From Crocosphaera sp. (GTDB lineage: Bacteria; Cyanobacteriota; Cyanobacteriia; Cyanobacteriales; Microcystaceae): a DNA stretch of 28,671 nucleotides. Positions 628-18,357 of this stretch are shown in pieces (within the stretch, counting starts at the first letter, position 1; the number at the start of each line of letters is the position of its first letter). Under the pieces are notes generated by a model. It did no database searches. It had not been told where the DNA came from and saw only the letters and a list, made by a program, of their open reading frames with translations. The stretch lies in NCBI GenBank assembly GCA_030064955.1, contig JASJDW010000039.1, positions 1 to 28,671 of the forward strand. The letters run 5' to 3'. The translations under genes and the position numbers were made by a program.

Positions 628-2511
628 CTAGTTGAGAGTAGGCATTTTAAACTGGTCTAAAAATATGCCAAAAGTAAGAGGAATAATCAATAAATCTAGC
701 TCAAAAGGAAGATTCAGTCGAAAATCTTTTTGCTCATATTTTTTTCTAATATTTTTGATCATCTCTGGATTAAAGTAACCTTGTTTTTTAATTAATTGAC
801 TTGATAAGATATCATTAATATATTCTCGATTAGCTTTGAATAACTCAGGGCTACCAGGAGTATGAAAAGCAAATTTTTCTCTGGTAATAATTTCAGAAGG
901 AAGAAAATTTTTTCCTATCTGTTTTAAGATATATTTTTCGGTTAATTGATTTAATTTTAAATCGGGAGGTATTTCTTTAGAAAATTCAACTATATTTATA
1001 TCTAAAAAGGGATAACGAGCTTCAACAGAATTAGCGAGAGCCATGCGATCGCCGTGATCAGACACTAAATGATCTGATAATCTTAACTTAAAATCTAGAT
1101 AGGAGCGTTGATGAATATAATGTCGAGATTGTAGTTTCTTTGGATTAACTAATTCAAAATTGAGACAATCAAATTGATTAAATCTTTCATTAAGTTCTAA
1201 AGAATATAAAGCCAGCTTTGTTTCTCGATAAGCATAGAGATCCTTTTCATAAAAAATACGACTATCTCCCCAAACTTTCAGCCTTAACTCTTCTTCTAAT
1301 ACCGTTTCCCAATTATAATTATTTATAGTCTGAGAAGAATCACTTTTTTGAGCTTGATCAAAACGATAACCGACATATCCAGCAAATAATTCATCGGCAC
1401 CTTCACCCGTTAAAATAGCTTTGATATTATTACTATTTACACAGTTTGAAAGAGCTAAAGATGCTGTATTATAGGTTTCTTTGAGAGGACATTCAGAATG
1501 ATAAATAGCTTTTGCCAAACCTTCACTAATACTGTGTCTATCAAAATTAAGATTATGATGTCTAAAATTGTTCAATTGCTTCAATAAAATGTCACGATAA
1601 TCCCCTTCACATATATCTTTATCAGTAAACCCAATGGAAAAAGAATACATTTGAGTATCTGAACAAATTTTCTGAGCAATTGCTGCTATTAACGAAGAAT
1701 CTAATCCTCCGCTAATATACATTCCAACAGGAACATCAGCTTGTAATCGATATTTGATAGATTGAATTAATATTTCTTGTAATTTTTCTGTATAATATTC
1801 TTTTGATAAATAAACAGGCTCTTCCCCAATTTTGGGATAGTCTAAATCCCAATATTCTGTCAGCTTAACTTGGCAATCTTTAATGGTCAAATAATGTCCA
1901 CTTTTGAGACTTTTTATATTTTTAAACATTGTCCTTGGACTGACCAAACCCGGAAAAGTTAAAACTTGATCTAACCCTGTTAAATCAACTTCACGAACCA
2001 CAAGGGGATGAGCTAAAATTGCTTTTATTTCTGAAGCAAAAATCAAAATATTATCAACAATTGTATAAAATAAAGGACAAATTCCCATGTGATCTCTAGC
2101 TAACATTAAGGTCTGTTCTTTGCGATCGTACAGAACAAACGCAAATTGACCGTTAAGTTTATTTAAAAATTTATGGCCATATTCTTCATATAAATGGACT
2201 AAGACTTCTACATCAGTATTTGTCCGAAATTTATGACCTTTTTTCTGTAAATTTTCCCTGAGTTCACGATAGTTAAATATCTCTCCGTTACAAACCAAGA
2301 CGATTGAATGATCTTCATTATAAAGAGGTTGTTCTCCCCCTTCTAAATCAACTAAACTCAATCTGCGAAAACCCATTCCACCATAGTTTCCCAGAAAATA
2401 GCCCGATGAATCTGGCCCCCGATGAATTATCGTATTTGCCATAGCAACTAAAATATTTTTTTGGGGACTTCGCTCTTTTTTAATATCAAAATATCCGCAA
2501 ATGCCACACAT
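628..2511 (-). CDS. asnB: Asparagine synthetase (glutamine-hydrolysing), AsnB family. It is the last gene of the cluster and is probably a tailoring or precursor amidotransferase.
   Basis: ATG at 2511. The N-terminal MCGICGYF supplies the Cys2 nucleophile of class II (Ntn) glutamine amidotransferases. The PP-loop ATP pyrophosphatase motif YISGGLDSS is present. The 627-aa length is typical of AsnB. Confidence 0.9.
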   Translation of the reverse strand: MCGICGYFDIKKERSPQKNILVAMANTIIHRGPDSSGYFLGNYGGMGFRRLSLVDLEGGEQPLYNEDHSIVLVCNGEIFNYRELRENLQKKGHKFRTNTDVEVLVHLYEEYGHKFLNKLNGQFAFVLYDRKEQTLMLARDHMGICPLFYTIVDNILIFASEIKAILAHPLVVREVDLTGLDQVLTFPGLVSPRTMFKNIKSLKSGHYLTIKDCQVKLTEYWDLDYPKIGEEPVYLSKEYYTEKLQEILIQSIKYRLQADVPVGMYISGGLDSSLIAAIAQKICSDTQMYSFSIGFTDKDICEGDYRDILLKQLNNFRHHNLNFDRHSISEGLAKAIYHSECPLKETYNTASLALSNCVNSNNIKAILTGEGADELFAGYVGYRFDQAQKSDSSQTINNYNWETVLEEELRLKVWGDSRIFYEKDLYAYRETKLALYSLELNERFNQFDCLNFELVNPKKLQSRHYIHQRSYLDFKLRLSDHLVSDHGDRMALANSVEARYPFLDINIVEFSKEIPPDLKLNQLTEKYILKQIGKNFLPSEIITREKFAFHTPGSPELFKANREYINDILSSQLIKKQGYFNPEMIKNIRKKYEQKDFRLNLPFELDLLIIPLTFGIFLDQFKMPTLN

Positions 2512-2626: not shown

Positions 2627-5600
2627 CTAGGTTATAATCAATTTTAGTTGATTAGCTAATTCTTGAACATAGGGTTCAGCTAACATCGTTATGTGATCCC
2701 CAGGAACGTCATAAACGTCTACTGGTTCAGGGGTCAATTCACTCCACCCCAAGTCTGGTTGGCGAAAACTTTGAGAAAATACCCCATCAGAATCTTCAAC
2801 TAATGGCCTTGCTGCTCGCAAAAGGGTAATTTTGCCTGGATAAATTTGAGGGATATACTCAATTAACGCTTGGTGACTGGCTTTCTGAACTGCCAAGAGG
2901 GAACAAATCATTTGCTCTCCTGCGTCTGGCGGAATGAGATTACCTTGTCTCAATTTTGCTAAAAAGTAGCTATATTGCGCTGCTGAATTCAATTGCTGGA
3001 GTTCTGTATAATCAACTTCTAAGTGAATTCCAAAAAAGCGTTCTAAAACCTGCGCTCGTTTCACTAACCATTTTGCATCATCAATTGATTCAACAACCTG
3101 TCCATGAATCGGGGCAGGTGTATCCATAATCACCAGTAAGGCGATCGCTTGTCCTTGTTTGTGTAGTTGTTGAGCCATTTCCAAAGCAACCAGTCCCCCA
3201 AAGGAGTGTCCTCCCAACAAGTAAGGACCACAAGGCTGTATCGTTTTCACCGCTTCAATGTAATAACTTGCCAAGTCAGGGATGCTAGTATAAGGGGATT
3301 TTTGTCCGTCCATTCCAGGGGCTTGCAGGGCGTAGAGAGGCTGATTGGAACTGAGATAACGTCCTAAAGCAATATATCCTAACGCATTACCCCCAATGGG
3401 ATGAGCCAAGAATAAAGGGGTCTGAGAACCTGAGCTTTGGATAGTAACTAAAGGAGACCAAGAGGCAACAGCAGATTGAGCGCGTAAAATTGTCGCCATT
3501 GCTTCAATTGTCCCATTTTCAAAAAGAATCGATAGGGGTAATTCAATCTGGAACTGTTGTTCAATCAGAGCGATTAACCGTAACGCTAGTAAAGAATGAC
3601 CCCCAACGTCAAAAAAGTTATCGGTGACACCAATGGGATGAATCTTGAGTACCTCTTCCCAAATTTGCACAAGCTTAAGCTCTATACTGTCACGAGAGGT
3701 AATCAGCATGTTTGCTGAGGAGTGTCTATTATAATCTGGCTTAGGCAGTCTCTTGCGATCCACCTTTCCGTTGGGGGTTAAGGGCAAAGTATCTAAAGTC
3801 ATGATCCAAGAAGGAATCATATAATTCGGTAAATAACCCTTGAGGTAGTCCTTGAGTTTTTGTCCTTCAAGATCAAGGCCATCTTGAGGGACAATGTAAG
3901 CGACTAACTGCCTACCTATGGGGGTTTCATCAGCGATAACCACACAGTGCTGCACCTCTGGATATTGGCCAAGTCTTGTTTCAATTTCTCCTAATTCGAT
4001 ACGAAATCCGCGAATTTTAACTTGATGGTCAATTCTACCGAGAAATTCAATGGAACCGTCTTGATGATAACGAGCTAAATCGCCAGTTTTATATAATTTT
4101 TCTGAGGTAGACCCATTGAAGAAAGGATTAGGCAGGAATTGTTGCGCTGTCAAGTCTGGTTGATTCAAATAACCTTGTGCGAGTCCAATCCCACCAATAT
4201 ACAGTTCTCCTGGTACGCCAATGGGAACGGGTTGAAGGTAGGGATCGAGAATATAAACTTGGGTATTGGCAATTGGGCGACCAATAGAGGGTTGCACTTG
4301 GGAGTGAGTACATTCGGCAATGGTGGCACAAACAGTGGTTTCCGTTGGGCCATAAGCATTGAAAAAACGACAACGATGAGACCAACGAGCAACAAGATCG
4401 GCAGAACAAGCTTCCCCTGCAACAATTAATGTCTGCAAAGCGGGAAGTTCTTCCTCTGGTAGCATGGCTAACATAGAGGGGGGTAAGGTGATGGTTGTAA
4501 TGGATTGCTCTCGTAAATGTTGCCATAATTTGACGGGATTAGACAGAATATCACGACTCACTAAGCAAAGAGTTGCCCCTCTCACTAATGCCATAAAAAT
4601 CTCACTGATTGAAGCATCAAAGCTCATGGAGGCAAATTGCAGGACACGACTATCTTCTTGAACGGCAAAGGTTTCTATCTGGGCAAGGGCTAGGTTACAT
4701 AACCCGCGATGAGCCACGAGAACCCCTTTCGGAAGACCTGTAGAACCAGACGTATAAATAATGTAGGCAGGATGGTGGGCTTTAATCTTCAGATTCGGGT
4801 TAATCTGGCTGTATTGCTCTACTTCTTGCTGATTTTGGTCTAAACAAATGATGGTAATTTTTTCTGAGGTTTGCCAACGGTTTAATGAGGTTTCCGTGAG
4901 GATAATTGGCAAGTTGGCATCTTCTACCATAAAGGCCAAACGTTCTTGAGGATAGGTGGGATCTAAGGGAACATAAACTCCCCCTGTTTTGAGAATGCCT
5001 AAGAGAGCGATCATCATTAATGGCGATCGCTCTAGAGCCATTCCTATGTGATCGCCAGGTTTTACGCCTAATGAGCGTAAATAGTGAGCTAATTGATTAG
5101 CTTGGATATTCAACTGCTGATAGGTCATTAAGCGATCATTAAAGGTTAAGGCGATCGCCTCTGGGTTACGGTTAACTTGCCCTTCAAATAGCTGATGAAT
5201 GCACACATCATCGGGATAGTCTTTTTGAGTTTGATTCCAGTCTTGGATTAACTGTTGAGATTCAGCTTGCGTCAATAAGGGCAATTCATCCAATGACTGT
5301 TGAGGATTATTGACAATAGCGGTTAATAGGGTTTGAAAATGCCCAAACATACGAGTAATTGTCGTAGCCTTAAACAAATTTGTTCGATATTCCCATCGAC
5401 TACTTAATCCTTCTTCGGTCTCTTTTAAAGATAACGTTAAATCTAATTTCGCTCTCTTGGTTTCTACGGAAAAAGAACGTAAGCTTAAACCTGGCAATTT
5501 TAATTCTGTATTGGGGACATTATAGAAGACAAAGCCCACTTGAAATAAAGGGGAATGGCTTAAGTTTCTTTCGGGTTGTAATTCTTCAACTAATTTCTCG

Positions 5601-6793
5601 AAGGGTAAATCTTGATGAGCATAAGCAGCGAGGGCCACTTCTCGCACCTTAGCTAAGAGGGACACAAAGGAGAGGTCTCCAGAAAGCTGAGTTCGTAAGA
5701 CTAAAGTATTGACAAAGCAGCCAATTAATGGTTCTAATTCTGGCTGAGAACGGCCGGCTGTAGCTGTTCCCACCAGCAAGTCTTCTTGGCGGGTATAACG
5801 ATAAAGTAGTGTTTTAAAGGCTGCTAATAGGGTCATAAATAGCGTAACCCCTTGTTGCTGACTGAAGGTTTTTAGGGCATTGCTGAGGGGTTGTGACAGA
5901 AGAAAGGACTGGCTATCTCCTTCAAAGGAAGAGGATGATGATGGGGGATAATCGGTAGGCAATTGTAGGTAGGGGAGTTGGCCTTGTAGAGTTTGTTTCC
6001 AATAACTCAGTTGTCGATTTAAAACATCTCCTTGTAACCACTTTTGTTGCCAAACGGCAAAATCTTTATATTGGAGCGGTAATTTAGGCAATGAAGCAGG
6101 ATTACCATTGTATTTTGCCTCATATAATGCCTTTAATTCTTTAACCAGTATTGCGGTAGACCAAGCATCAAAAACAAGATGATGAAGGGTTAACACTAAT
6201 ATGTACTCAAATTTAGCTAAGTGTAGCAGGGTTGCTTTTAATAAGGGAGCATTAGCTAAATTGAAGGGTTTTTGCGCCTCTTCTGTAAGTAATAACGTGA
6301 TTGCTTCGGGTTGCTGGGGTTGGGGAATTTGTTGAAGATTTAAGTGCTTGAGGGTTAATGTTACCTCTGAATGAATCACTTGTCTTGGCTGTTCGTTGAC
6401 GACGTTAATGCTAGTCCGCAAACTTTCGTGACGTTGGATAATTTCATTCAAACACTGTTCTAATCTGTCTACTTTAAGGGGTCCTCGCAGGGTAATTCCA
6501 CCACAAATATGATAAACAGAAGGATCACGAATTAACTGTTCTAAAAACCAGAGACGCTGTTGGGTAAAAGAAAGGGGAAAATGAGACTCTCTATGGACTT
6601 GGGCAGTTATTTGGGGCGGTTTTCCCTGATTTTTTTGTAATATTTCAATGATTTCTGTTTTTTTTTCCGCTATCTGACTTAATAACTGAGATGTCATTGC
6701 TCCTTGTGGCGCATGATACCGCAGACGATCGCCATCTAGCCACAACTGAATGTTACTACCACGCAATGTTGATAAAAGCTCAATAACTGTCAT
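2627..6793 (-). CDS. NRPS termination module: TubC-type N-terminal docking domain, then C-A(Tyr-like)-T-TE.
   Basis: The track ORF starts at a TTG (6850). The ATG at 6793 overlaps the upstream stop as ATGA and opens with MTVIELLSTLRGSNIQLWLDGDRLRYHAPQG, a docking domain. C domain: PLSFTQQRLWFLEQL and HHLVFDAWS. A domain: YTSGSTGLPKG, NAYGPTETT, YKTGDLARY, GRIDHQVKIRG, with hand-extracted code DASTIAAVCK. T domain: DVGGHSLLA. TE domain: GHSFGG, an Asp in IMDTPAP and a His in PGDHITM. Confidence 0.95.
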   Translation of the reverse strand: MTVIELLSTLRGSNIQLWLDGDRLRYHAPQGAMTSQLLSQIAEKKTEIIEILQKNQGKPPQITAQVHRESHFPLSFTQQRLWFLEQLIRDPSVYHICGGITLRGPLKVDRLEQCLNEIIQRHESLRTSINVVNEQPRQVIHSEVTLTLKHLNLQQIPQPQQPEAITLLLTEEAQKPFNLANAPLLKATLLHLAKFEYILVLTLHHLVFDAWSTAILVKELKALYEAKYNGNPASLPKLPLQYKDFAVWQQKWLQGDVLNRQLSYWKQTLQGQLPYLQLPTDYPPSSSSSFEGDSQSFLLSQPLSNALKTFSQQQGVTLFMTLLAAFKTLLYRYTRQEDLLVGTATAGRSQPELEPLIGCFVNTLVLRTQLSGDLSFVSLLAKVREVALAAYAHQDLPFEKLVEELQPERNLSHSPLFQVGFVFYNVPNTELKLPGLSLRSFSVETKRAKLDLTLSLKETEEGLSSRWEYRTNLFKATTITRMFGHFQTLLTAIVNNPQQSLDELPLLTQAESQQLIQDWNQTQKDYPDDVCIHQLFEGQVNRNPEAIALTFNDRLMTYQQLNIQANQLAHYLRSLGVKPGDHIGMALERSPLMMIALLGILKTGGVYVPLDPTYPQERLAFMVEDANLPIILTETSLNRWQTSEKITIICLDQNQQEVEQYSQINPNLKIKAHHPAYIIYTSGSTGLPKGVLVAHRGLCNLALAQIETFAVQEDSRVLQFASMSFDASISEIFMALVRGATLCLVSRDILSNPVKLWQHLREQSITTITLPPSMLAMLPEEELPALQTLIVAGEACSADLVARWSHRCRFFNAYGPTETTVCATIAECTHSQVQPSIGRPIANTQVYILDPYLQPVPIGVPGELYIGGIGLAQGYLNQPDLTAQQFLPNPFFNGSTSEKLYKTGDLARYHQDGSIEFLGRIDHQVKIRGFRIELGEIETRLGQYPEVQHCVVIADETPIGRQLVAYIVPQDGLDLEGQKLKDYLKGYLPNYMIPSWIMTLDTLPLTPNGKVDRKRLPKPDYNRHSSANMLITSRDSIELKLVQIWEEVLKIHPIGVTDNFFDVGGHSLLALRLIALIEQQFQIELPLSILFENGTIEAMATILRAQSAVASWSPLVTIQSSGSQTPLFLAHPIGGNALGYIALGRYLSSNQPLYALQAPGMDGQKSPYTSIPDLASYYIEAVKTIQPCGPYLLGGHSFGGLVALEMAQQLHKQGQAIALLVIMDTPAPIHGQVVESIDDAKWLVKRAQVLERFFGIHLEVDYTELQQLNSAAQYSYFLAKLRQGNLIPPDAGEQMICSLLAVQKASHQALIEYIPQIYPGKITLLRAARPLVEDSDGVFSQSFRQPDLGWSELTPEPVDVYDVPGDHITMLAEPYVQELANQLKLIIT

Positions 6794-8673
6794 AAGATTC
6801 CTTCCTCTGTTTGACCATCCAAGGATCTTGGCGAAGTTTCGGTTAACCAACGTAGTGCCTCAATACTTTCCGCTTGAGCGGCTAATGTTGGTGACTCAAA
6901 AAGAATTCGCAAGGGAACTTCGACTTGAAACGCTTTTCCCATACGAGTGACTAATTGTGTGGCTAATAGGGAATGTCCCCCTAAGGCAAAAAAGTTATCA
7001 TTAATCCCCACTTGTTTAATATTTAGTACCTTCATCCAAATTTGCGCTAACTCTTGTTCTAGTGGCGTTCTAGGGGCAATAAACTGACGATTTACGGTTT
7101 GACTAGGAGAGGGAAGTGCTTTTTTGTCTACTTTTCCTGAAATGGTTCGCGGTAACCTCTCCATGACGACAAACGATGAGGGAATCATGATCGTTGGCAA
7201 GAATTGGCTTAAAAAGTCTTTTAATCGGGCAAATTCAAGCTCTTGGTTGAGAACAACATAAGCACAGAGATATTTATTACCATTGGTGTCGTTAATATCG
7301 ATAACAACTGCATCTTTTACCGCTTGATGTAAGCGTAAATAATCTTCAATTTCTCCTAATTCTATTCTCACGCCTCGAATTTTTACTTGTTTATCTTTGC
7401 GTCCTAAATATTCAAAATTTCCATCGGGTAAAATGCGACCAAGATCCCCTGTTTTGTAGACAATATCCGTGGGATTATTACTAAAAGGATTTGGAATAAA
7501 TACCTGATTAGTTAACTCAGGTTGTTGATAATATCCTAAAGTACGATAAGGTGTGCGAATATAAATTTCTCCTACCATTCCTATCGGAGAAGCTTGTCCG
7601 CTTTCATCAACAATTAATGCAGTTGCTCCTGTCATGGGTTTTCCAATGGGAATGGTTCGCCGTTGCTGATCTGAAGACTGAATAAAATAAAAGAATTTTG
7701 TCATGGTTGTTTCAGAAGCACCATAGAGATTCACTAATTGAATTCTGTCTCCATAAATATCACACCACCGCGCAATATCTCCACTGTAAATGGTTTCTCC
7801 TGATAAGAGAATATACTGTAAATCTGAAAATAATTGTGGCGTTAAGTCTTCATTGAGAAGGGTACGAAATAAAGAGGGAACACAGTGAATCAAATTAATG
7901 TTTTGAGCGTCTATCCATCTGACTAATTTTCTTCCATCAAGAATAGTATCTACTGAGTCTGGTACACAAACCACTCCCCCAGAACACAAAGGAAGAAACA
8001 TATCTCTGAGAAAAGCATCAAAAGATGGACTTGTTAATTGACTTACGCGAGTCGATTTTTGAATTTTTAAGGTTTCAATTTCCCAGTTAATAAAATGGGC
8101 GATCGCTTTCAGACGACCTGCTATTCCTTTTGGTTTTCCAGTTGAACCAGATGTAAAATAAAGATAGCATATATCATCGGGTTGTGAGTCAATCGTAGGG
8201 AGATCTGAAACAGAATAGGCTAAATAGTTTCCCAAGTAGCTTAGGTTTGATTTTTGGGTTTCAAACATTTGTTTTTCTCTAGAAATTAATCTGAGTTGAA
8301 AAGATTCAATTTCGGTTAAATTATTGATTTTTTCAAATCCCATTGCATCAATAATTAACCACTGCAAGTTAATGTCTGAAATAATTGTTTTAAGTCGAAA
8401 ATCAGGAAGATTTGGATCTAAGGGAACAAAAACACAGCCTGCTTTTAAAATAGCAATAATCGCTATAATAATCTCAGCCGAATCTTGAGAACAAATCCCG
8501 ATTAAAGTTCCTTTCGATGCACCCTGATCAATCAAGAAATTAGCCAGTTGATTAGATTGCTGTTCAATTTGGTCATAGGTGAAATGTCGTGATTCATAAC
8601 GAATGGCAATCTTATCATTAAACTGTGCTGCATTGTGGCTAAACCAAGCTTGAATGTGAGTTTTTTTGTCCAT
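6790..8673 (-). CDS. Stand-alone NRPS adenylation-thiolation (A-T) didomain. Its predicted substrate is an acidic (D-)amino acid.
   Basis: A domain: FTSGSTGKPKG, SPSFDAFLRDMF, LYGASETT, YKTGDLGR, GRKDKQVKIRG. T domain: ALGGHSLLA. The hand-extracted code is DARHLSLMTK. The track start at 8718 is a TTG. The first ATG (MDKKTHIQAWF) is at 8673, which is the start used here. The stop overlaps the next gene's ATG. Confidence 0.9.
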   Translation of the reverse strand: MDKKTHIQAWFSHNAAQFNDKIAIRYESRHFTYDQIEQQSNQLANFLIDQGASKGTLIGICSQDSAEIIIAIIAILKAGCVFVPLDPNLPDFRLKTIISDINLQWLIIDAMGFEKINNLTEIESFQLRLISREKQMFETQKSNLSYLGNYLAYSVSDLPTIDSQPDDICYLYFTSGSTGKPKGIAGRLKAIAHFINWEIETLKIQKSTRVSQLTSPSFDAFLRDMFLPLCSGGVVCVPDSVDTILDGRKLVRWIDAQNINLIHCVPSLFRTLLNEDLTPQLFSDLQYILLSGETIYSGDIARWCDIYGDRIQLVNLYGASETTMTKFFYFIQSSDQQRRTIPIGKPMTGATALIVDESGQASPIGMVGEIYIRTPYRTLGYYQQPELTNQVFIPNPFSNNPTDIVYKTGDLGRILPDGNFEYLGRKDKQVKIRGVRIELGEIEDYLRLHQAVKDAVVIDINDTNGNKYLCAYVVLNQELEFARLKDFLSQFLPTIMIPSSFVVMERLPRTISGKVDKKALPSPSQTVNRQFIAPRTPLEQELAQIWMKVLNIKQVGINDNFFALGGHSLLATQLVTRMGKAFQVEVPLRILFESPTLAAQAESIEALRWLTETSPRSLDGQTEEGIL

Positions 8674-8711
8674 ATTGATAAGGATAAATTGTGTTAGTTG
8701 TCGAGAAATAT

Positions 8712-9452
8712 TTAGCAATTATAATTTGCTTGAGATAGGGACAATTCAGGTAAAGTCCGAGCTAAAATAGTTAAAGGATCTAGAAAAATTTTTTCTTTTC
8801 TATTTTGATTCATCTGTAAATCCCAATATTTACTCAGTAAATGAATTTCTGTGCATCCGACAACAAACTTTTCTATATTATACTTGGTTTTTAAGGATTC
8901 TAAAATAGGAAAACACTCTTTTATTGTTCCTTGCACTTTAAGATGGTAAATCATTTGATGAATTATATTTTGATCTTCTTCATCCAGTAAAATTAGATAA
9001 TTTTTAGCCATTGGCCAAAATTCATGATTTTGAAAAATTTCTAATTTTTTCGTTCCTTTTGAACAAATCAAGAGATGTTTCTCTTTTTGCTTTAAAATAT
9101 CAATCATTATAATATCTATTAAAGAAATAATTCGCTTTTTAAATTCATCAGGAAGTTGCGGTAACAAGTAATGAGAAGTTATACAACAAATAATAATTTT
9201 TGAGACATTTAGTTGGCATAATTTCGAGAGAGTGTCAATTAATTTTTCCAAAAAATAATGATAATCTTGCTTAAGAAACACTTCGGTTCTATCAGGAAAA
9301 CTTGGATCAGAATAAACGATTATTTTAGGAAATTCTTGTTCTCGTTGCTTGTCAAGATTATATTCATATATTGTCTTTAAAAATTCTGCTGATGCTAAGG
9401 GGCCCATTCCCCCTAAAATTCCTATCATTTCTGATTGATTACTTTGTTTCAT
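8712..9452 (-). CDS. Aspartate/glutamate racemase family protein (McyF-like).
   Basis: ATG at 9452. The N-terminal IGILGGMGPLASAEF motif is present. The two catalytic-Cys motifs of PLP-independent Asp/Glu racemases are present: IIICCITSHY (compare PCNTAH) and VVGCTEIHLL (compare GCTE). Length is 246 aa. Confidence 0.85.
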   Translation of the reverse strand: MKQSNQSEMIGILGGMGPLASAEFLKTIYEYNLDKQREQEFPKIIVYSDPSFPDRTEVFLKQDYHYFLEKLIDTLSKLCQLNVSKIIICCITSHYLLPQLPDEFKKRIISLIDIIMIDILKQKEKHLLICSKGTKKLEIFQNHEFWPMAKNYLILLDEEDQNIIHQMIYHLKVQGTIKECFPILESLKTKYNIEKFVVGCTEIHLLSKYWDLQMNQNRKEKIFLDPLTILARTLPELSLSQANYNC

Positions 9453-9497
9453 TGATGTTATACTAAATCTGGTTATCGTAGGTTACTTATGAAGAAA

Positions 9498-9520
9498 GGC
9501 AATAGGCAATAGGCAATAGG
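9498..9520. repeat. Tandem heptamer GGCAATA x3 (plus GG). It is a STRR-like short tandem repeat in the 201-bp intergenic gap.
   Basis: Direct reading gives ggcaata (9498-9504), ggcaata (9505-9511) and ggcaata (9512-9518), then gg. Heptanucleotide tandem repeats are a known class of cyanobacterial intergenic repeat. Confidence 0.8.
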
Positions 9521-9576
9521 ATAAATAAATAAGTAGCTTTTGAGATGAGGATTTGGTATTAGTGACTGTTAAAATT

Positions 9577-9604
9577 ATCATAATTGTTTTTACTTGTTAC
9601 TCAA
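9577..9604 (-). promoter_or_regulatory. Candidate sigma70-type internal promoter (TTGAGT, 16-nt spacer, TATGAT) upstream of the racemase gene.
   Basis: The minus strand reads ttgagt (9604-9599), a 16-nt spacer, then tatgat (9582-9577). This is ~125 nt upstream of the ATG at 9452, inside the only large (201 bp) intergenic gap of the cluster. It is a motif match only, and AT-rich DNA gives such matches by chance. Confidence 0.2.
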
Positions 9605-9653
9605 CTAATTTGCTTTAAAAGCATATAAGAAATTCATGATTTCTGCTAGTGTT

Positions 9654-12600
9654 TTAGTCAAAATCTGCATTAAAACTATCTAATAATATTTTATTTTCTT
9701 CTGTGGGAGTTATGGTTATTTCTGAGAGATTCTGATTAGCATAATTGGGGACATTTTCTATTAAGGTTTGCAATTGATCAAGCAAACGACGAACGGATTT
9801 CTCTGTAAATTGCTGAGAATTATAATCAATGACAAGCAAGAAAGTTGGATATAATTCTACAGTAACCCCAAGGGAATAATTAGTCTGAGAAAAAGATTTG
9901 ACATCTACAATTTTAATTTCTCCTTGATGTAATGATGGATCAATGGGATAATTCTCTACAGTAATAAAGCTTTCAAATAATTGGCTTTCGGGCGTTATAT
10001 CACTCCATTTTTGTATCTGAACCAAAGAATTATATTGATATTCTAAACGTTCTATCTGTTCTTTTTGAAGCTGTTTAAACCAATCTAGCAGACATAACTG
10101 AGGTTGAATAGAAACGCTAACTGGAATAGTATTAATTAATAATCCTACCATAGATTCTACCCCTACTAATTCGGGTGGTCTTCCTGATACTGTTGCACCA
10201 AAAATAATCTCATCTTCTCCACTATAACGACTTAATAAAAAGGCAAAACAACCTTGAAGTACCGTATTAAGGGTTAGATGTTGAGATTGTGTCCAATTGA
10301 TTAATTTTTCGGTTATCTCCGTTGTCAGTTGACTTTGTTCTCTTGCTTGATTTTGATTGATTTGAGTATTTTTATTAGTCAGAGGAAGTTCAATTCCCCA
10401 TTGTGTCGCTTTTTTAATTCCTTTTAGGGATTGTTTCCAGAACTTTTCGGCTTTTGAATCATTGTTTTTGTTTAACCAATTAATATAGTTTTTGTAAGAG
10501 GAAACTGGTGATAATCTGACTTTCTTCTCTTGAGATAAGCTTTGATAAACGCTAAATACTTCTTGAAAAATAATGCTATTACACCACCCATCTAACAGCA
10601 GGTGATGATGACTCCAAATTAAATAATATTGATTATCAGAGAGTCGAAATAAACTCAGACGCATTAAAGGCGCATTGGCAAAAGAAAATCCTTGTTGAGC
10701 ATCAGTTTTCAGATACTTTTCTAAGGCTTTCTCTTGAGAAGATATCGATAAAAACCGCCAATCTTCTTGATACCAAGGCAAAGAAACTTCTGAGGGAATA
10801 ACTTGCAAAGGAGTTACTAAGTTTTGCCAAATAAAAGCACTTTTTAAGCTATCATGACGGTTAATAATTGTTTCCCAAGCTAAGCGAAACTTGTCCTCAT
10901 TTAAGGCACCCGAAAGGGTAAAAACTTTTTGCTGACAGTAAAGGTTAGACTCAGCTTCATAAAGACAGTGGAAAAGTAATCCTTGTTGGAGGGGAGATAA
11001 AGGATAAATATCGGCGATCGCCGGAAATTTCAGGACGATTTTGTCTAATCTTTCTTGAGTTAAATGAGCTAAAGGAAAGTCATCAGGGGTATAATTAGGT
11101 TTACTCTTAAGACAGTCGTCAATTAAAGTTTTTAAAGTATTTATGGTATCTTGCGCTAATTTTTCTATTGTTTCTGGTTGGTATTGCCGAGAATTGTAAG
11201 TCCATTCAAAACGAGTTTGACCCTCAACTACCATAACATCAAGGGTAATACTTGATGTATGCTGTCCTAAACCACTTTTTTCGCTGCCTCGATCATCAAA
11301 TAATAAAGGAAAAATAGAGTCTTCTTGGGTAAATTGACCCAGATAATTAAAACATAATTCAGGTTGTGGTAAATTACTTAATTGAGTCCCTATTTCCTTT
11401 TGCTGATTCAGATAGCGTAACATTCCATAACCGATACCTCGATTGGGAATTTGACGGAGGGTTTCTTTGACCACTTCTAGAGACTGAGAAGGAGAAAAAC
11501 AAGGATCACAAGATAATAATAAAGGAAAACGAGTTGTAAACCAGCCCAAGGTTCGGGACAGATCGATCTCCTCAAATAATTCCTCTCTACCATGTCCTTC
11601 CAACTCTACCCAGAGATAATTGTTTCCTGTCCAGCTTTGATAAGTTTGTAGTAACCCACACAGCAATAACTCATTCATTTGAGTGCGATAATGTTTGGAA
11701 ACTTTGTGCAAAGCTGCGTCTGTGTCTTTAGCATCCAGAAATACAATTACTTTCTCGATCTTTGCCTCAACTTTGCCATTTTGTTGATGAATTCGAGGCA
11801 GATAACTAGGAGAAGCAGGAAATTGGGCTAACCAATAATCTAATTCTGATAAAATACTTTCTGATTGAGCATAATCCTTTAATTTTTTTGACCAATATTG
11901 AAAAGATGTCGTTTTCGCCCCTAACTGTATGTTTTCGCCCCGTTTTACTTGGTTATAAGCTGTATGAAAGTCTTCTAACCAAATTCGCCAAGATACCCCA
12001 TCCATCAACAGATGATGAATAATCACTAATAACCGTGCGCCTCGTTTAACCCCTAAATCAAACCATACTACCCGAAATAAGGGAGGATGCTCTAAATTTA
12101 AGCTATTTTGGACTTGAGTTGCTTGGGTTGCCAGGGTGCTAGAAAGTTCTTTTTCGGGAATATTAGAGAGATCCCGTTTAATAAATGTTATTTTCTCCTT
12201 AATTTCCCCATAATACTGTATCCAACCCGATTTTTCTGGCCGAAAAGATAATTTTAAACTATCATGATGCTCAGCTAACCCTTGAATAACAGTTTCTAAA
12301 TCAGTGACAAGAACATTGGGAGGAATATCTAGGAGAATAGACATATTCCAGTGATGAAGATTAGGAAGGGAGAGTTGAAAAAACCACTGTTGAATGGGGT
12401 TTAAAGGAACTTGACCTTGATTATCTCCTATTTGTAACTTAAACGCTTCAGTTTCAATAATTTTGGCTAATGCTGCAATGGTTTGATGCTCAAATAGATC
12501 AATCGGTTTTAATTTTAAGCCCGCTAATTTAGCCCTGGCAACAATTTGAGTACCAAGAATAGAGTCTCCCCCCAACTCAAAAAAGTTATCTTCAACACCG

Positions 12601-15600
12601 ACTTGTTCAAGATGCAGAATATCTGCCCAGATTTTGGCTAAGGTTCCCTCTTGAGGAGTTCTTGGGGACACATAAGTGGTTTCTACTTGACTTCGGGTAA
12701 TTTCAGGAAGTGGTAACTTTTGTCGATCTAATTTACCGTTGGGTGTTAGGGGAATACGATCCAAAAAGACAAAGCAGTTAGGAATCATAAACTCTGGTAA
12801 GCTTTTTTGCAAAAAATTGCGTAATTCAGAAATTTTTGGCTTATTTGTGGCATAAGATACCACATAAGCCACCAGTAATTTATTTTCATCCGTTTTTTCC
12901 CTAACCATCACCCTTGTATCTCTCACTGACGGATGATTTTTTAATTTTGCTTCCACTTCTCCTAACTCAATACGAAAACCATGAAGCTTTATTTGATGAT
13001 CAATTCTTCCTAAAAATTCAATATTCCCGTCGGGAAGATAGTGTGCTAAATCACCAGTGCGGTAGAGTCGTTGTGATAACTTTATTTTAAAATTTTTGAG
13101 GTTTAATGTTGTGGTGTGACTGGTTTGCATCTTAAATTTTGCTTCTCGATTAAACCATTCACCACGGGTAATTTTTAATTTTAAGTGACTGTTTTTAACT
13201 TTTAGGGTTAACTGTTGATTAAAGGGATGAGACTGAAAACGATCTTGCGTTAAATTTGGTTGATTGAGATAGCCACGGGCTAAATTATCGCCTCCTATAT
13301 AGATTTCTCCTGGAAAACCAACCGGAACAGGACGCAATTGAGAATCTAATACAAATATTTGGGTATTTGGTAAAGGAGATCCCAAGGGAACTGAAGCAGT
13401 GCCTCTGTCTTGACTTTCTTGTGTTACTTGATAAGTGAGAACGCCTACGGTTGTTTCTGTTGGGCCATAATGGTTAACAATTTGGCAATTTGGGGCTAAT
13501 TTTTTGACCTTTTGAACTAATTCCCAAGGGGTTGTTTCACCCCCTAAGACTAAGGTTTTTTTCGGTAAAATTTGTGATGGGTTGGGACTTTCTGAGATTA
13601 ATGCTTGTAAATGACTGGGAACAATTTTTAAATAGTCAATTCCTCTTTGTTGTGATAAATAATCCTCTAATCCTAGGGGATCTGTCATATTTTCTTGAGA
13701 AATAATGTGTAAACAACCTCCATGACATAAGGAGGGGAAAATCATGGTATTCCCTAAGTCTGCCCCAAACGTAGAAATTAATCCATAACTGGCTTTTTTC
13801 GGTAACTGAAGACGGTCTATAATTCCCTGTACATAGTTAACAAGTTGTCTATGTTCGATCGCAACTCCTTTGGGTTTCCCTGTTGATCCAGAGGTATAGA
13901 TGACATAAGCTAAATTTTCTGAGGTTACCTTTATGTCTAAATTAGCTTCACTGTAATGGGAGATAACTGTTTCATCTCCATCTAAGATAACCGTTTGCGC
14001 TGCTAAGGGGGATATTATCGATTTAAGATGTTGCTGGGTGATGACTATTTGAGCTTGGCTATTGTCTACCATGAATTTTAACCGCTCATGGGGTAAAATC
14101 GGATCTAATGGGACATAAGCTCCTCCTGCTTTTAAAATTCCTAGTAATCCTATCAAGATCCAAGGTGATCGCTCAACACAAATTCCGACACAATCATCAG
14201 GTTTGACCCCTAAATGACGTAAATGATGGGCTAATTGGTTAGCTAGGGCATTAAGCTGAGAATAAGTCAGTTTTTCTTCCTCACAAATTACGGCAATGTC
14301 TTGAGGAGTCTGTTTGACTTGAGTTTCAAAAAGATGATGAATACAGGAGTCATTTAGGGAATTTTCCAAGGAATAAGAGATTAAGCTAGGATTAAATTCT
14401 AATAAAATACGTTGCTTTTCATCATCCGTTAAAAGATCTAATTCTTCTATCTTTTGAGTTGGCTTTGCACAGGCATTCATTAATAGTGTGTAATAATTTC
14501 GTAGCCAACCTTCAATAACGTCTGAAGAAAAACTTTTCGTATTGTAGTGAAATTCAATGTCAATTCCCTGAGAATATTGTTGACAAAAAACATTCAATTG
14601 ATAAGGTTGAATACAGGAAAATTCTCGGATTAATGTTCCCTTTATTTCTCCTTGAGCAGTTATTTTATTTGAGTGAAAATCAGTTTCAAATGTAATTCCA
14701 TTTCCGACAAATTTCTCAGCTTCAGGAACAAAATAGTCTTGACATTTGCTTAATTCTTGAACTTTTTGAGAGATTTGCTGACAGAATGTAATAAAATTAA
14801 GGGATGAGTCTACAGGTGTCGACATTGGCAAATATTTTGCCATTAATCCAATACTTTGTGCTAATTCTTCGTGATGACGATTACTAGACCCTAATCCTAC
14901 CGTTACCTCTTCTTCATGAGTTAGTCTTGATAAGAATATTAAAAAGCAACTTAGAAAAAAATCTTGATAAGTAATTTGATATTTTTTAGTCAAACTTTCA
15001 AATAATTGAAAGTCTTTTTGTTCAAGGGTTAAAGTAATAAACCCAGGTTGAAAATTAGCAGCAAATTCATGATTTTTTTGAAGGGTTAGGGGCATTTTTA
15101 ATTCAAAATAACCTGACGAAGTTTGCTGTTGCCAATATTCTCTTCCTTCAGCCGTTTCTGGGGATTCTAGTAACTCATTTTGCCACTCTGAAAAATCCAC
15201 ATATTGGAATGGTTCATCGATTATATTTTCTTCTCTTTTTTGTTCATGGCAAATACTAATTTCCCTGATTAAATGCCTTAAGGAAAAGCGATCAGCTAAT
15301 AAACTTGGCAAACCAATAATCAATGTCAATTCATTAGCTGAACATTGCACTAAAGCAATTTTAAAAAGGGGCATTTTTTCGAGATTTAATGGTCTTTGTA
15401 GCAGATTTTTAAAAATAGCTTCTATTTGTTCTAATTGTTTTTCTTTTGATTCTTTTTGTAAATTATATTGCTCAATGAAGGGAACATAGCTATCTCCAAT
15501 TACTTGCAGAGGAAGGGTGCTTTCTGGCAATTTATAAAAAGTTGTCCGCAAAATTTCCAAGCGTTGAATAACCATTTGCAGAGCATTCATTAATCGCTCT

Positions 15601-15731
15601 TTATCTAGGTGTCCTTCTAACAAAAATGCCCCTTGAGTTCGATAATAATTATTAGAATTCTTGTGATTTAATAACCATAGATATTTTTGCTGAGGGGAGA
15701 GGCGAAATCCTTCTATTTTTTTAGTAATCAT
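9654..15731 (-). CDS. NRPS: His-less C-like (interface-type) domain, then A(Asp code)-T-E-C(DCL-type).
   Basis: ATG at 15731. The N-terminal C-fold domain has C1 (RLSPQQKYLWLL) and C2 (RLEILRTTF) motifs, but C3 is GLPSLLADRFS instead of HHxxxDG. A domain: YTSGSTGKPKG, FGADLGNT, NHYGPTETT, YRTGDLAHY, GRIDHQIKLHG, with code DLTKVGHVGK. T domain: ELGGDSILG. E domain: PLNPIQQWFF and HHLLMDGVSWRI. Terminal C domain: DIYPLSPLQQGLLFH and SHHHLLLDGW. Confidence 0.95.
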   Translation of the reverse strand: MITKKIEGFRLSPQQKYLWLLNHKNSNNYYRTQGAFLLEGHLDKERLMNALQMVIQRLEILRTTFYKLPESTLPLQVIGDSYVPFIEQYNLQKESKEKQLEQIEAIFKNLLQRPLNLEKMPLFKIALVQCSANELTLIIGLPSLLADRFSLRHLIREISICHEQKREENIIDEPFQYVDFSEWQNELLESPETAEGREYWQQQTSSGYFELKMPLTLQKNHEFAANFQPGFITLTLEQKDFQLFESLTKKYQITYQDFFLSCFLIFLSRLTHEEEVTVGLGSSNRHHEELAQSIGLMAKYLPMSTPVDSSLNFITFCQQISQKVQELSKCQDYFVPEAEKFVGNGITFETDFHSNKITAQGEIKGTLIREFSCIQPYQLNVFCQQYSQGIDIEFHYNTKSFSSDVIEGWLRNYYTLLMNACAKPTQKIEELDLLTDDEKQRILLEFNPSLISYSLENSLNDSCIHHLFETQVKQTPQDIAVICEEEKLTYSQLNALANQLAHHLRHLGVKPDDCVGICVERSPWILIGLLGILKAGGAYVPLDPILPHERLKFMVDNSQAQIVITQQHLKSIISPLAAQTVILDGDETVISHYSEANLDIKVTSENLAYVIYTSGSTGKPKGVAIEHRQLVNYVQGIIDRLQLPKKASYGLISTFGADLGNTMIFPSLCHGGCLHIISQENMTDPLGLEDYLSQQRGIDYLKIVPSHLQALISESPNPSQILPKKTLVLGGETTPWELVQKVKKLAPNCQIVNHYGPTETTVGVLTYQVTQESQDRGTASVPLGSPLPNTQIFVLDSQLRPVPVGFPGEIYIGGDNLARGYLNQPNLTQDRFQSHPFNQQLTLKVKNSHLKLKITRGEWFNREAKFKMQTSHTTTLNLKNFKIKLSQRLYRTGDLAHYLPDGNIEFLGRIDHQIKLHGFRIELGEVEAKLKNHPSVRDTRVMVREKTDENKLLVAYVVSYATNKPKISELRNFLQKSLPEFMIPNCFVFLDRIPLTPNGKLDRQKLPLPEITRSQVETTYVSPRTPQEGTLAKIWADILHLEQVGVEDNFFELGGDSILGTQIVARAKLAGLKLKPIDLFEHQTIAALAKIIETEAFKLQIGDNQGQVPLNPIQQWFFQLSLPNLHHWNMSILLDIPPNVLVTDLETVIQGLAEHHDSLKLSFRPEKSGWIQYYGEIKEKITFIKRDLSNIPEKELSSTLATQATQVQNSLNLEHPPLFRVVWFDLGVKRGARLLVIIHHLLMDGVSWRIWLEDFHTAYNQVKRGENIQLGAKTTSFQYWSKKLKDYAQSESILSELDYWLAQFPASPSYLPRIHQQNGKVEAKIEKVIVFLDAKDTDAALHKVSKHYRTQMNELLLCGLLQTYQSWTGNNYLWVELEGHGREELFEEIDLSRTLGWFTTRFPLLLSCDPCFSPSQSLEVVKETLRQIPNRGIGYGMLRYLNQQKEIGTQLSNLPQPELCFNYLGQFTQEDSIFPLLFDDRGSEKSGLGQHTSSITLDVMVVEGQTRFEWTYNSRQYQPETIEKLAQDTINTLKTLIDDCLKSKPNYTPDDFPLAHLTQERLDKIVLKFPAIADIYPLSPLQQGLLFHCLYEAESNLYCQQKVFTLSGALNEDKFRLAWETIINRHDSLKSAFIWQNLVTPLQVIPSEVSLPWYQEDWRFLSISSQEKALEKYLKTDAQQGFSFANAPLMRLSLFRLSDNQYYLIWSHHHLLLDGWCNSIIFQEVFSVYQSLSQEKKVRLSPVSSYKNYINWLNKNNDSKAEKFWKQSLKGIKKATQWGIELPLTNKNTQINQNQAREQSQLTTEITEKLINWTQSQHLTLNTVLQGCFAFLLSRYSGEDEIIFGATVSGRPPELVGVESMVGLLINTIPVSVSIQPQLCLLDWFKQLQKEQIERLEYQYNSLVQIQKWSDITPESQLFESFITVENYPIDPSLHQGEIKIVDVKSFSQTNYSLGVTVELYPTFLLVIDYNSQQFTEKSVRRLLDQLQTLIENVPNYANQNLSEITITPTEENKILLDSFNADFD

Positions 15732-16640: not shown

Positions 16641-16686
16641 AATTGTTCTTAAGTTTTTCAAGATTTTTATGGGGGTTAAACTTGTC

Positions 16687-17793: not shown

Positions 17794-18357
17794 CTAGAGA
17801 TTTTTAGCTAAGTCCAATGTAAATTTTTGTTGAACACCTGTCTTGACAGAATCAGACAAATATTTAAAAACTTTACGATAGCGAAGACGGTAAAATAATA
17901 TATAAATTCCAATTTTATGATGCCAAGGTACATAATCAAATTCTTCGATAACATTTGCCATATGTAAGATAACTAAATTGAGCCATTCTGAATAACTAAT
18001 CGTGATTTTATCAGAGGTTAACCGATTAATAATACAAATTTCCGACCTTTGGTTAGGTTGAATGTCAAAATAATTTTCTCGTTGTTTACAAATGCAAAAT
18101 AAATAGACAATTTTCTCAGCTTCTTCTCCAATCGCTTCTTGTAATTCTTTTCGTTGACAAAATTTTAAAATGTAGTTTTTTTGGGTTCCTTCTGTGCCAT
18201 AAAAAGAATGAAAATACCCAGCCAAACAGAGAGTAGGAGCACATTTCCATTTTTTTAATAAATCTCCGGTTCCGACTAAATGCTCATAAAACGTCCTTTT
18301 TGTATGAACAATTCTATGGGTTTGATAAGATTTGAGCAGATATAAAACATTTTCCAT
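17794..18357 (-). CDS. Hypothetical protein with an HD-domain-like His-rich N-terminal motif. Function is unknown.
   Basis: ATG at 18357. The 187-aa ORF is co-directional and tightly packed between cluster genes. The motif string HRIVHTKRTFYEHLVGTGDLL...LAGYFHSFYGTEG resembles the H...HD metal motif of HD-superfamily proteins, but with HS instead of HD. I cannot make a confident family assignment from sequence alone. Confidence 0.6.
   Translation of the reverse strand: MENVLYLLKSYQTHRIVHTKRTFYEHLVGTGDLLKKWKCAPTLCLAGYFHSFYGTEGTQKNYILKFCQRKELQEAIGEEAEKIVYLFCICKQRENYFDIQPNQRSEICIINRLTSDKITISYSEWLNLVILHMANVIEEFDYVPWHHKIGIYILFYRLRYRKVFKYLSDSVKTGVQQKFTLDLAKNL

Follow-up and report, generated by a model that had tools for sequence, protein, structure and literature searches.

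The McyF-like racemase and the stand-alone A-T protein encoded side by side in the window (the whole analysed stretch of 28,671 nucleotides from Crocosphaera sp.) appear to work as a dedicated D-aspartate insertion unit, which an AsnB-like amidotransferase would complete as a third gene. We put the probability of this reading at about 55%. D-Asp is the most likely substrate of the A-T protein as judged from its sequence, and analogy makes an iso-linkage the most likely form of its incorporation. The features on which the analysis relies are collected in Table 1.

Table 1. Positions of the analysed features in the window, with the matches or motifs that define them.
Feature	Position	Strand	Match, motif or remark
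AsnB-like glutamine-dependent amidotransferase	628..2511	-	Pfam Asn_synthase and GATase_7; N-terminal MCGICG
LCL-type C domain of the terminal C-A-T-TE protein	5249..6589	-	motifs PLSFTQQRLWFL, HHLVFDAWS
TubC_N-type docking domain, N-terminus of the terminal module	6635..6793	-	PF18563, E 5e-17
Stand-alone A-T protein	6790..8673	-	627 aa from ATG 8673; code DARHLSLMTK
T (PP-binding) domain of the A-T protein, with GGHSL serine motif	6868..7056	-	PF00550, residues 555-617
A-domain core (AMP-binding), holding the code positions	7528..8643	-	PF00501, residues 26-397 of the 642-aa ORF
McyF-like two-cysteine aspartate racemase	8712..9452	-	246 aa; Pfam, NCBIfam and PDB matches
'Dangling' C domain, C-terminus of the upstream NRPS	9684..11015	-	DCL-like and preceded by an E domain; motif HHHLLLDG
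E domain of the preceding Asp module (DLTKVGHVGK)	11082..12434	-	PIQQWF, HHLLMDG, EGHGRE, FNYLGQ

In the proposed mechanism, the racemase would interconvert L-Asp and D-Asp, as its similarity to McyF and its intact catalytic residues suggest. The A-T protein would pick D-Asp through a pocket with Arg239 and His278 and load its own carrier domain without the help of an E domain. The C domain that ends the upstream NRPS would act in trans and transfer the chain, predicted to carry a lipo-beta-amino-acyl part and D-beta-hydroxy-Asp, onto the amino nitrogen of the residue on the A-T protein. The last protein would receive the A-T protein at its TubC_N docking domain, and its LCL-type C domain would pass the chain to a Tyr-like residue before the TE domain releases it; the A domain of this terminal C-A-T-TE protein has the Tyr-like code DASTIAAVCK. 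D-Asp is most likely activated at its side-chain carboxyl. Such activation leaves a free alpha-carboxyl, the probable target of the AsnB-like amidotransferase, and amidation there would give a D-isoasparagine-type residue.

The preliminary description of this DNA had called the racemase McyF-like, a two-Cys enzyme whose gene abuts the A-T gene with a gap of about 38 bp, and our searches agree with it on each point. PF01177 (Asp_Glu_race) matched the racemase ORF with 50.4 bits (cut-off 31), and TIGR00035 (NCBIfam asp_race) with 102.8 bits (cut-off 93.1). McyF (5wxx) was the top solved relative in the PDB search (E 4.4e-43), whereas the generic aspartate racemases reached E 4e-18 or weaker. McyF is an assayed aspartate racemase, and its kinetics are quoted in PMC8142540. 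When the catalytic Cys/Ser positions of the McyF structures 5wxx, 5xnk and 5wxy were aligned, Cys90 (IICCITSHY) and Cys200 (VVGCTEIH) of the racemase fell on the cysteines mutated in the McyF crystal forms. In an alignment of 23 relatives, one of them McyF, both cysteines and the PDRT arginine are invariant; every invariant position of this alignment is common to McyF as well. With an identity of 39% to McyF, the window racemase is assigned by sequence comparison to a sister family, separate and large, and not to the McyF orthologs. The racemase stop codon (8712-8714) lies 38 nt from the A-T start at ATG 8673. An alternative TTG start at 8718 would give an ORF of 642 aa (6790-8718), but the gene callers choose ATG 8673. 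All genes of the window are on the minus strand, and the four letters ATGA hold both the A-T stop codon and the start codon of the gene that follows.

The A-T protein was also described as free-standing, in a module without an E domain, and Pfam indeed finds only AMP-binding, AMP-binding_C and PP-binding domains in it, without C, E or TE. Its core motifs are intact (A3 SGSTGKPKG, A7 YKTGD, A8 GRxDxQVKIRG, the A10 Lys and the GGHSL serine of the T domain). The code taken from SFDAFLRDMF, NLIHCVPS, ILLSGE, NLYGASETTMT and SGKVDKK is DARHLSLMTK, the same as that extracted by hand before, and it corresponds to the pocket residues D219, A220, R223, H263, L289, S291, L316, M324, T325 and K514. In code numbering, R223 and H263 are Arg239 and His278, and K514 is Lys517. 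Applied to further A domains, the column mapping gives canonical codes (DLTKVGHVGK, DASTIAAVCK, DAWQFGLIDK, DFWNIGMVHK and DILQLGLIWK), as it does for McyE, and it is regarded as validated for this reason. Read directly from Microcystis mcyE, the McyE code is DPRHSGVVGK, which bears out the DPRHSGVV given in the preliminary description. Nearly all of the 120 best A-T homologs read DARHL[AS]LM[TV]K; they are mostly stand-alone A-T proteins and come, among other sources, from cyanobacteria and Acidobacteriota. Positions 5-9 of the code had been said to match nothing known, and full-text literature searches for DARHLSLMTK, DARHLALMTK, DARHFSLMVK, DARHVGIF and DPRHSGVV likewise returned nothing relevant. 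No paper assigning DARHLSLMTK or the cassette was found in these literature searches.

To see how far the arrangement is conserved, we compared 80 genomic loci in which a racemase relative is encoded. An A domain with Arg239 and His278 is present in 54 of the 80. In 39 of them a D[AG][RK]H A-T protein is encoded within 250 bp downstream of the racemase, in 10 an integrated DARHFSLMVK module ends just upstream of it, and in another 5 a D[AG][RK]H A domain lies elsewhere in the locus. Counted by domains, Arg/Lys239 together with His278 was read in 58 A domains of the 80 loci, nearly all of which adjoin the racemase gene, and in none of the 109 other A domains of the same loci. Adjacent pairs of racemase and DxRH A domain occur in 49 loci from several phyla, Cyanobacteria and Acidobacteriota among them. 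The racemase gene was also immediately upstream in all three A-T homologs examined (Calothrix, Mastigocoleus and an Acidobacteriota MAG). Identity to the window co-varies between the racemase and the A-T protein (r = 0.86). The integrated modules keep the pocket code at an A-domain identity of about 38.6%, where unrelated domains have a mean of 33.6%. Because the pairing is conserved, the identities co-vary and the pocket code survives in divergent integrated modules, a functional link between the racemase and the DxRH A domain is supported. These three observations support, at the level of sequence, the earlier suggestion that a racemase-derived acidic D-amino acid is loaded directly. The split-module architecture, in which the upstream C domain is separate from the A-T protein, is present in the window and conserved; in 30 of 32 stand-alone cassettes, the first NRPS feature on the upstream side is a C domain.

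The AsnB-like amidotransferase as a conserved partner is a new point, beyond what the preliminary description held. TIGR01536 matched it with 459 bits (cut-off 267), its N-terminal Cys nucleophile (glutaminase) is intact, and its best PDB match is 7ylz, a hydroxyamidotransferase. In 23 of 35 stand-alone cassettes the racemase gene is immediately preceded by an AsnB-like gene with 56-76% identity to that of the window, and this pairing also occurs in loci without another Asp module. No AsnB-like gene was found within the 10-kb flanks in the integrated (type B) arrangement or in Mastigocoleus.

The closest comparison for the A-T protein is with microcystin biosynthesis. Like the window A-T protein, the McyE module has Arg239 and His278 and lacks an E domain, and both clusters contain a dedicated two-Cys racemase. 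The C domain downstream of the McyE module is LCL-like (287 bits versus 112 bits with a DCL query), and the window is the same in this respect, with 307 bits to TycC6 versus 116 bits to the DCL domains of SrfA-C and TycB1 (PDB). The window PKS ends in AMT-C as McyE does, and its C domain is nearest to the first C domain of McyE (37.6%). However, the A domains of McyE and the window share 31% identity, which is no closer than unrelated A domains, and they are not orthologous. The shared Arg/His pair may therefore be of convergent origin, and a different binding mode is possible. In the window the stand-alone A-T gene directly follows the racemase gene as a split module, whereas mcyF is not adjacent to mcyB; the window cassette also travels with an AsnB-like amidotransferase, unlike microcystin, and differs at code positions 5-9. 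McyB2 presumably has the code DARHVGIF for D-MeAsp/D-Asp in a module without an E domain. A metagenome scan aimed at McyB2 gave mcyE-F-G neighbourhoods only, and PDB 8hlk is McyB1. For the nodularin pathway, we take NdaG to be the counterpart in the racemase comparison with McyF.

What makes the iso-linkage most likely is the LCL type of the downstream C domain, which the C domain after the iso-D-Glu module of McyE shares. An LCL-type C domain is also expected after an ordinary L residue. If D-Asp were instead loaded through its alpha-carboxyl and incorporated by an ordinary alpha-peptide bond, the Arg/His pair would bind the side-chain carboxylate. Asp235 and Lys517 are kept in the A-T protein as in alpha-amino-acid A domains, and the sequence gives no direct sign of which carboxyl is adenylated, both of which fit such loading. 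We nevertheless think it unlikely, since an alpha-linked D donor is normally followed by a DCL-type C domain, while the C domain after the DxRH module is LCL-like in all of about 35 loci and an E domain in none. Moreover, the canonical alpha-activating Asp domains of the same loci read DLTKVGHVGK instead. The same C domain would suit an A-T protein that loads an ordinary L-amino acid beside an unrelated racemase, one with a housekeeping role or serving another step, and in 14 of 68 well-flanked racemase loci no DxRH A domain was found within 10 kb. But the adjacency of the gene pair across several phyla, the confinement of the Arg/His pair to these A domains and the co-variation of the identities leave this reading with very little probability. 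Apart from the A-T protein, the window has a single Asp module; this contains an E domain of its own and therefore does not need the racemase, which speaks against service at that step.

The nature of the acidic substrate can be questioned separately. D-Glu, D-beta-hydroxy-Asp, D-3-methyl-Asp, D-2-aminoadipate or D-cysteate might take the place of D-Asp, and several observations lean that way: code positions 5-9 have no literature match, McyE takes D-Glu with the same Arg/His pair, TauD genes lie inside the cassettes of L022, L023, L034 and L054, between the AsnB-like gene and the racemase, and the racemase has a sub-threshold match to CuyB (cysteate racemase). These substrates are improbable, however, when the racemase is far nearer to the assayed McyF than to any other solved enzyme and shares its invariant positions with it. 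D-Glu is available from peptidoglycan metabolism and D-Asp is not, so a dedicated racemase would be unnecessary for D-Glu and argues for Asp. The residues L, L and M at positions 299, 322 and 330 are also bulkier than S, V and V in McyE, which suggests a shorter substrate than that of McyE. The order of amidation and loading could also be reversed, with the AsnB-like enzyme converting free D-Asp to D-Asn or D-isoasparagine and the A-T protein loading the amide. The kept order of AsnB-like gene, racemase and A-T gene in the 23 cassettes and the intact glutaminase nucleophile are compatible with this scheme, but a pocket with Arg and His typically goes with a carboxylate, less so with an amide, and the Asn-activating domains of the same loci read DATKVGEVGK or DLTKLGEVGK. 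The integrated DARHFSLMVK modules have nearly the same code without an AsnB-like gene nearby, and an alpha-linked D-Asn would need a DCL-type C domain downstream. We regard amide loading as very unlikely.

A more specific version of the insertion unit is that amidotransferase, racemase and A-T protein form a cassette that is shared horizontally across phyla and plugged in after a dangling C domain, ahead of the next module, and that installs beta-linked D-Asp amidated to D-isoasparagine. This version is possible but doubtful. It has a parallel in the peptidoglycan of lactococci and enterococci, whose D-Asp cross-bridge is made by an aspartate racemase, an ATP-grasp D-aspartate ligase and the amidotransferase AsnH. 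The steps proposed for the cassette are the same: Asp is racemised, attached through its beta-carboxyl and amidated at its alpha-carboxyl to D-isoasparagine. The peptidoglycan pathway ligates by ATP-grasp on a cell-wall precursor and not by an NRPS A-T protein; the analogy is functional only. If the D-isoasparagine reading is true, the cassette would be the NRPS counterpart of the D-Asp/D-isoAsn cross-bridge pathway, and an abundant orphan specificity code would receive its first substrate.

If the D-aspartate insertion unit is real, it would give a substrate to an unassigned A-domain code, the one that almost all of the 120 best homologs have. A mining rule would follow, by which a racemase beside a DxRH A domain, whether an AsnB-like gene is present or not, marks a directly loaded D-Asp-type residue that is probably iso-linked, and structure prediction would improve for many orphan lipopeptide and small-peptide clusters. 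The microcystin-style loading of a ready-made acidic D-amino acid would then be general and portable, and not special to a single toxin family. The compact split module (C and A-T with docking) could also be used for engineering D- or iso-residues into peptides.

Stand-alone A-T didomains of the SyrB1, CmaA and CysH type present an amino acid for in-trans tailoring, and the window resembles them in having a free-standing A-T protein in a cluster with Fe/2OG enzymes. Unlike them, the window A-T protein is in line, with the dangling C domain upstream and the docking and C domains downstream, and its conserved partners are the racemase and the amidotransferase, not an oxygenase. In the speirobactin cluster of Photorhabdus, the aspartate racemase gene J was proposed to feed D-Asp to an A domain that lacks an accompanying E domain (PMC12406682). 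In contrast to the window, the Arg/His pair is missing from the speirobactin A-domain codes (DYWQIGFIDK and DIWYVGACSK), the genes for the racemase and the A domain do not adjoin, and the L isomer is incorporated as well as the D isomer (PMC12406682). Among the literature on racemase, asparagine synthetase, FAAL and NRPS, only Micallef 2015 was relevant; it lists as orphans some clusters annotated with 'aspartate racemase' and others with 'asparagine synthase and racemase'.

The product of the window was also considered. The same cluster is carried by the cultured strains Calothrix sp. CCY 0018, Mastigocoleus testarum BC008, Nostoc sp. UHCC 0251 and Rivularia sp. UHCC 0363. Literature searches by strain name found no product. 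Cyanochelins were rejected, as neither a racemase nor an aminotransferase is mentioned for their clusters, which also differ in architecture. Anabaenolysin and microginin were rejected as well, since their amino-acid content does not seem to fit Asp / X / Tyr; a literature search for 'anabaenolysin' found no paper.

The GC and GC3 values per gene did not clearly mark the cassette as foreign within the cluster, and a promoter/terminator scan of 8600-9750 gave sites no more numerous than in shuffled sequence. The Fe/2OG enzymes of the window cluster are a TauD protein, a WelO5-like protein and a SyrB2-like domain.

The window holds one hybrid PKS/NRPS cluster with every gene on the minus strand, as found by ORF and domain analysis, and homolog searches placed its nearest relatives in Nostocales cyanobacteria. 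Every element of the preliminary description of the locus was correct (the domains, the likeness to McyF, the 38-nt gap and the code DARHLSLMTK). Only AMP-binding, AMP-binding_C and PP-binding domains were found by Pfam in the stand-alone A-T. Its start codon, an ATG at 8673 according to the gene callers, lies 38 nt from the racemase stop codon, and its stop codon shares an ATGA with the start codon of the following gene.

Features of the window (genes from domain analysis)
Feature	Position	Strand
Fatty-acyl-AMP-ligase-like gene, incomplete at window edge	27067-28635	-
SyrB2/CytC3-like halogenase domain-ACBP-ACP fusion	25603-27051	-
PKS, KS-AT-ACP-aminotransferase-methyltransferase-C	18408-25589	-
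DUF6817 protein	17794-18357	-
TauD-family oxygenase	16687-17721	-
WelO5-like protein	15828-16661	-
NRPS, 2025 aa	9654-15731	-
N-terminal C-like domain of the NRPS	14412-15731	-
In-frame 47-codon stretch of the NRPS	13071-13211	-
AGGCAAT tandem repeat	9497-9520	
Racemase	8712-9452	-
Stand-alone A-T	6790-8673	-
TubC_N-C-A-T-TE protein	2627-6793	-
AsnB-like amidotransferase	628-2511	-

The 246-aa racemase ORF matched Asp_Glu_race in the Pfam search. Its nearest solved structure was McyF by a wide margin (E 4.4e-43; the top-scoring generic aspartate racemase in the PDB sequence search gave 4e-18); the two proteins are 39% identical, and the window racemase represents a sister family. Cys90 and Cys200 align with the two cysteines that were changed to serine in the McyF crystal forms. 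When 22 family members were aligned with McyF, both cysteines proved invariant, and all positions invariant in the family were also present in McyF. The homolog search returned 980 racemase relatives at E <= 1e-10.

The ten-residue code of the A-T was read from conserved motifs as DARHLSLMTK. We trusted the column mapping because it also recovered textbook codes elsewhere in the window and in A domains of related loci (DLTKVGHVGK, DASTIAAVCK, DAWQFGLIDK, DFWNIGMVHK and DILQLGLIWK), and because Microcystis McyE came out as DPRHSGVVGK, in agreement with the DPRHSGVV start given in the preliminary description. The McyB2 code is presumably DARHVGIF. PDB 8hlk was considered as a source for McyB2 and rejected, since the structure is McyB1. 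Almost all of the best 120 A-T relatives (49-100% identity; for the most part stand-alone proteins of 620-660 aa, with cyanobacteria and Pyrinomonadaceae among the sources) carried DARHL[AS]LM[TV]K or the near variant DGRHLALMAK.

Many of the best racemase and best A-T relatives came from contigs of identical length, which suggests that they lie on shared contigs. An Asp_Glu_race gene was immediately 5' of the A-T in all three contigs inspected (Calothrix sp. CCY 0018, Mastigocoleus testarum and an Acidobacteriota MAG, the last with a quite different NRPS). Scanning one genome per species gave 198 racemase relatives. Codes were extracted for every A domain (167 in total) in the best 80 of these 198 loci, which came from Cyanobacteria, Acidobacteriota (Pyrinomonadaceae, Ca. 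Angelobacter, Blastocatellia), Chloroflexota, Planctomycetota, Gemmatimonadota, Proteobacteria and others. In 39 of the best 80, an A-T with a D[AG][RK]H code started <=250 bp downstream of the racemase (type A). In 10, an integrated DARHFSLMVK module ended just upstream of it (type B), and in 5 a DxRH A domain (Arg239 and His278) lay elsewhere within 10 kb. No DxRH domain was seen in 14 loci with good flanks on both sides, 3 of which had a related DARS..Q.. code; in the remaining 12, one or both flanks were too short. The pair of Arg/Lys239 and His278 occurred in none of the 109 remaining A domains of the best 80 of 198 loci. The proposal made for one locus thereby becomes a conserved, directly testable rule over several phyla.

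Within type A, the identities of the racemase and of the A-T to the window proteins were correlated (r = 0.86), which is what co-inheritance as a unit predicts. Type B A domains were only ~38.6% identical to that of the window (unrelated A domains: mean 33.6%, max 38.2%), and despite this low identity they had essentially the same pocket. In these sequence comparisons, the racemase is tracked by the pocket code and not by overall A-domain ancestry; no other finding argues as strongly for the racemase product as the substrate of the A domain.

The 2025-aa NRPS contains a C-like domain, an Asp-type A domain (DLTKVGHVGK), T, E and a final C domain (HHHLLLDG). The E domain is genuine, with PIQQWF, HHLLMDG, EGHGRE and FNYLGQ motifs, and the Asp of this module is predicted to be epimerised in cis. 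Since the Asp module has its own E domain, the racemase must serve another step, and the adjoining A-T is the obvious candidate. The nearest upstream NRPS feature was a C domain, not A or E, in 30 of 32 type A loci with upstream flank. Therefore, the module is split: C ends the upstream synthetase, followed by small genes and then the A-T. In the window, the next protein opens with a TubC_N docking domain, to which the A-T would hand over.

D-Asp is our favoured candidate substrate. The A-T pocket has L, L and M at positions 299, 322 and 330, against S, V and V in McyE, and these bulkier residues would favour the smaller choice of D-Asp. Peptidoglycan synthesis already provides cells with D-Glu but gives them no D-Asp, which also favours D-Asp as the reason for a dedicated racemase. 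Moreover, McyF, the nearest characterised relative with all family-invariant positions, is an assayed aspartate racemase according to PMC8142540. Loading of D-Glu, hydroxylated or methylated Asp, or another acidic D-amino acid is a less likely alternative to D-Asp on this evidence, although McyE shares the Arg/His pair.

The linkage was considered from the C domain after the A-T, which is LCL-type, with PLSFTQQRLWFL and HHLVFDAWS motifs (bit scores: 307 with the TycC6 C domain, 116 with the SrfA-C and TycB1 DCL domains). LCL-type domains were found in all ~35 related loci where a C domain comes after the DxRH module; in these loci the module was never followed by an E domain or by a C domain of the type found after the window's E domain. 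For an alpha-linked D residue, a DCL domain would be expected. In McyE, whose module has no E domain, D-Glu is loaded and joined via its gamma-carboxyl, as the microcystin structure has established. The McyE A-T is followed by an LCL-like C domain too (287 vs 112 bits in Microcystis mcyE-mcyF loci), therefore the DxRH pattern agrees with the only case of iso-linkage that has an experimental anchor. The LCL pattern would also be expected for an L residue, and as a sequence criterion it discriminates only when combined with the racemase evidence.

An AsnB-like gene, 56-76% identical to that of the window, was directly 5' of the racemase in 23 of 35 type A loci with enough upstream flank, and in 0 of 9 type B loci. 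The order in Calothrix is NRPS, AsnB-like gene, racemase, A-T; a TauD gene lies between AsnB-like gene and racemase in several Pyrinomonadaceae loci. These acidobacterial clusters contain Gln-type modules but lack a further Asp module, which indicates that the amidotransferase belongs to the DxRH unit and not to another Asp residue. The window copy has relocated to the cluster end. Its protein keeps the N-terminal Cys (MCGICG) and passed the asparagine-synthase equivalog model, and its best solved relative in the PDB search was a hydroxyamidotransferase acting on a natural-product carboxylate.

The closest known system is microcystin/nodularin (McyF or NdaG with McyB2 and McyE modules); the window works alike but is not a member. 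The McyE A domain is only 31% identical to that of the window A-T and not orthologous, and convergence may therefore account for the Arg/His pair in both. Unlike microcystin/nodularin, the window has a split module, whose stand-alone A-T is operonically joined to the racemase, and an amidotransferase usually accompanies the racemase/A-T pair. No assignment of the A-T code or the cassette was found in the literature searched. In the genome mining of Micallef 2015, 'aspartate racemase' and 'asparagine synthase and racemase' clusters are given as orphans of unpredictable effect.

Several variants were observed near racemase relatives in other genomes (locus handles, own coordinates). The type B C-A-T module without an AsnB-like gene occurs at L017, L019, L020, L026, L028, L029, L036, L046 and L055, with the racemase near position 10001 in every case. 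DARS[LV]SQM[TS]K codes (Ser278, Gln322) occur at L040 (1747-3501), L078 (11496-13310) and L082 (10322-12082), in an Anaerolineales, a Rhodopirellula and a Pyrinomonadaceae MAG; a Blastocatellia MAG carries a McyE-like DPRHFGFQAK at L057 (1174-3009). The module order Asp (DLTKVGHVGK), DxRH, Tyr-like (DASTIAAVCK/T) is common to L008-L016, L028-L030 and L036, with many cyanobacterial carriers, including Nostoc, Calothrix, Rivularia, Anabaena, Roholtiella, Mastigocoleus, Trichodesmium, Cylindrospermum and Scytonema, and points to a widespread orphan lipopeptide family.

Other parts of the cluster were also inspected. The halogenase domain of the fusion protein carries WHQA (an HxA motif) beside an acyl-CoA-binding-protein domain and an ACP, which suggests that the fatty-acyl starter is chlorinated while tethered. 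In the WelO5-family Fe/2OG protein, both the HxG halogenase signature (HTG, opposite HVG of WelO5) and the second His are retained, and a carrier-independent halogenase may act in the pathway besides a hydroxylase; related clusters of Nostoc, Calothrix and Anabaena have one or two paralogs. The PKS methyltransferase domain (HTH_51 and Methyltransf_12, ~residues 1585-1908, between aminotransferase and terminal C) is a possible N-methyltransferase for the new beta-amino group, which would raise the likelihood of release as a linear product instead of a macrolactam.

The C-like domain before the Asp A domain lacks HHxxxDG (LPSLLAD), and the preceding protein already ends in a true C. An 'interface domain' arrangement is tied to Asp beta-hydroxylation. 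By analogy, this C-like domain and the stand-alone TauD resemble that arrangement, as outlined in the summary in PMC12628792. The DUF6817 gene beside TauD is conserved in Mastigocoleus (L006) and Trichodesmium (L030). Located between motifs A6 and A7 in the Asp A domain, the AT-rich 47-codon stretch LTLKVKNSHLKLKITRGEWFNREAKFKMQTSHTTTLNLKNFKIKLSQ appears to be an insertion specific to this lineage, because the homologous Calothrix and Mastigocoleus NRPSs are 30-39 aa shorter. The 201-bp gap between NRPS stop and racemase start contains 3.4 perfect tandem copies of the heptamer AGGCAAT.
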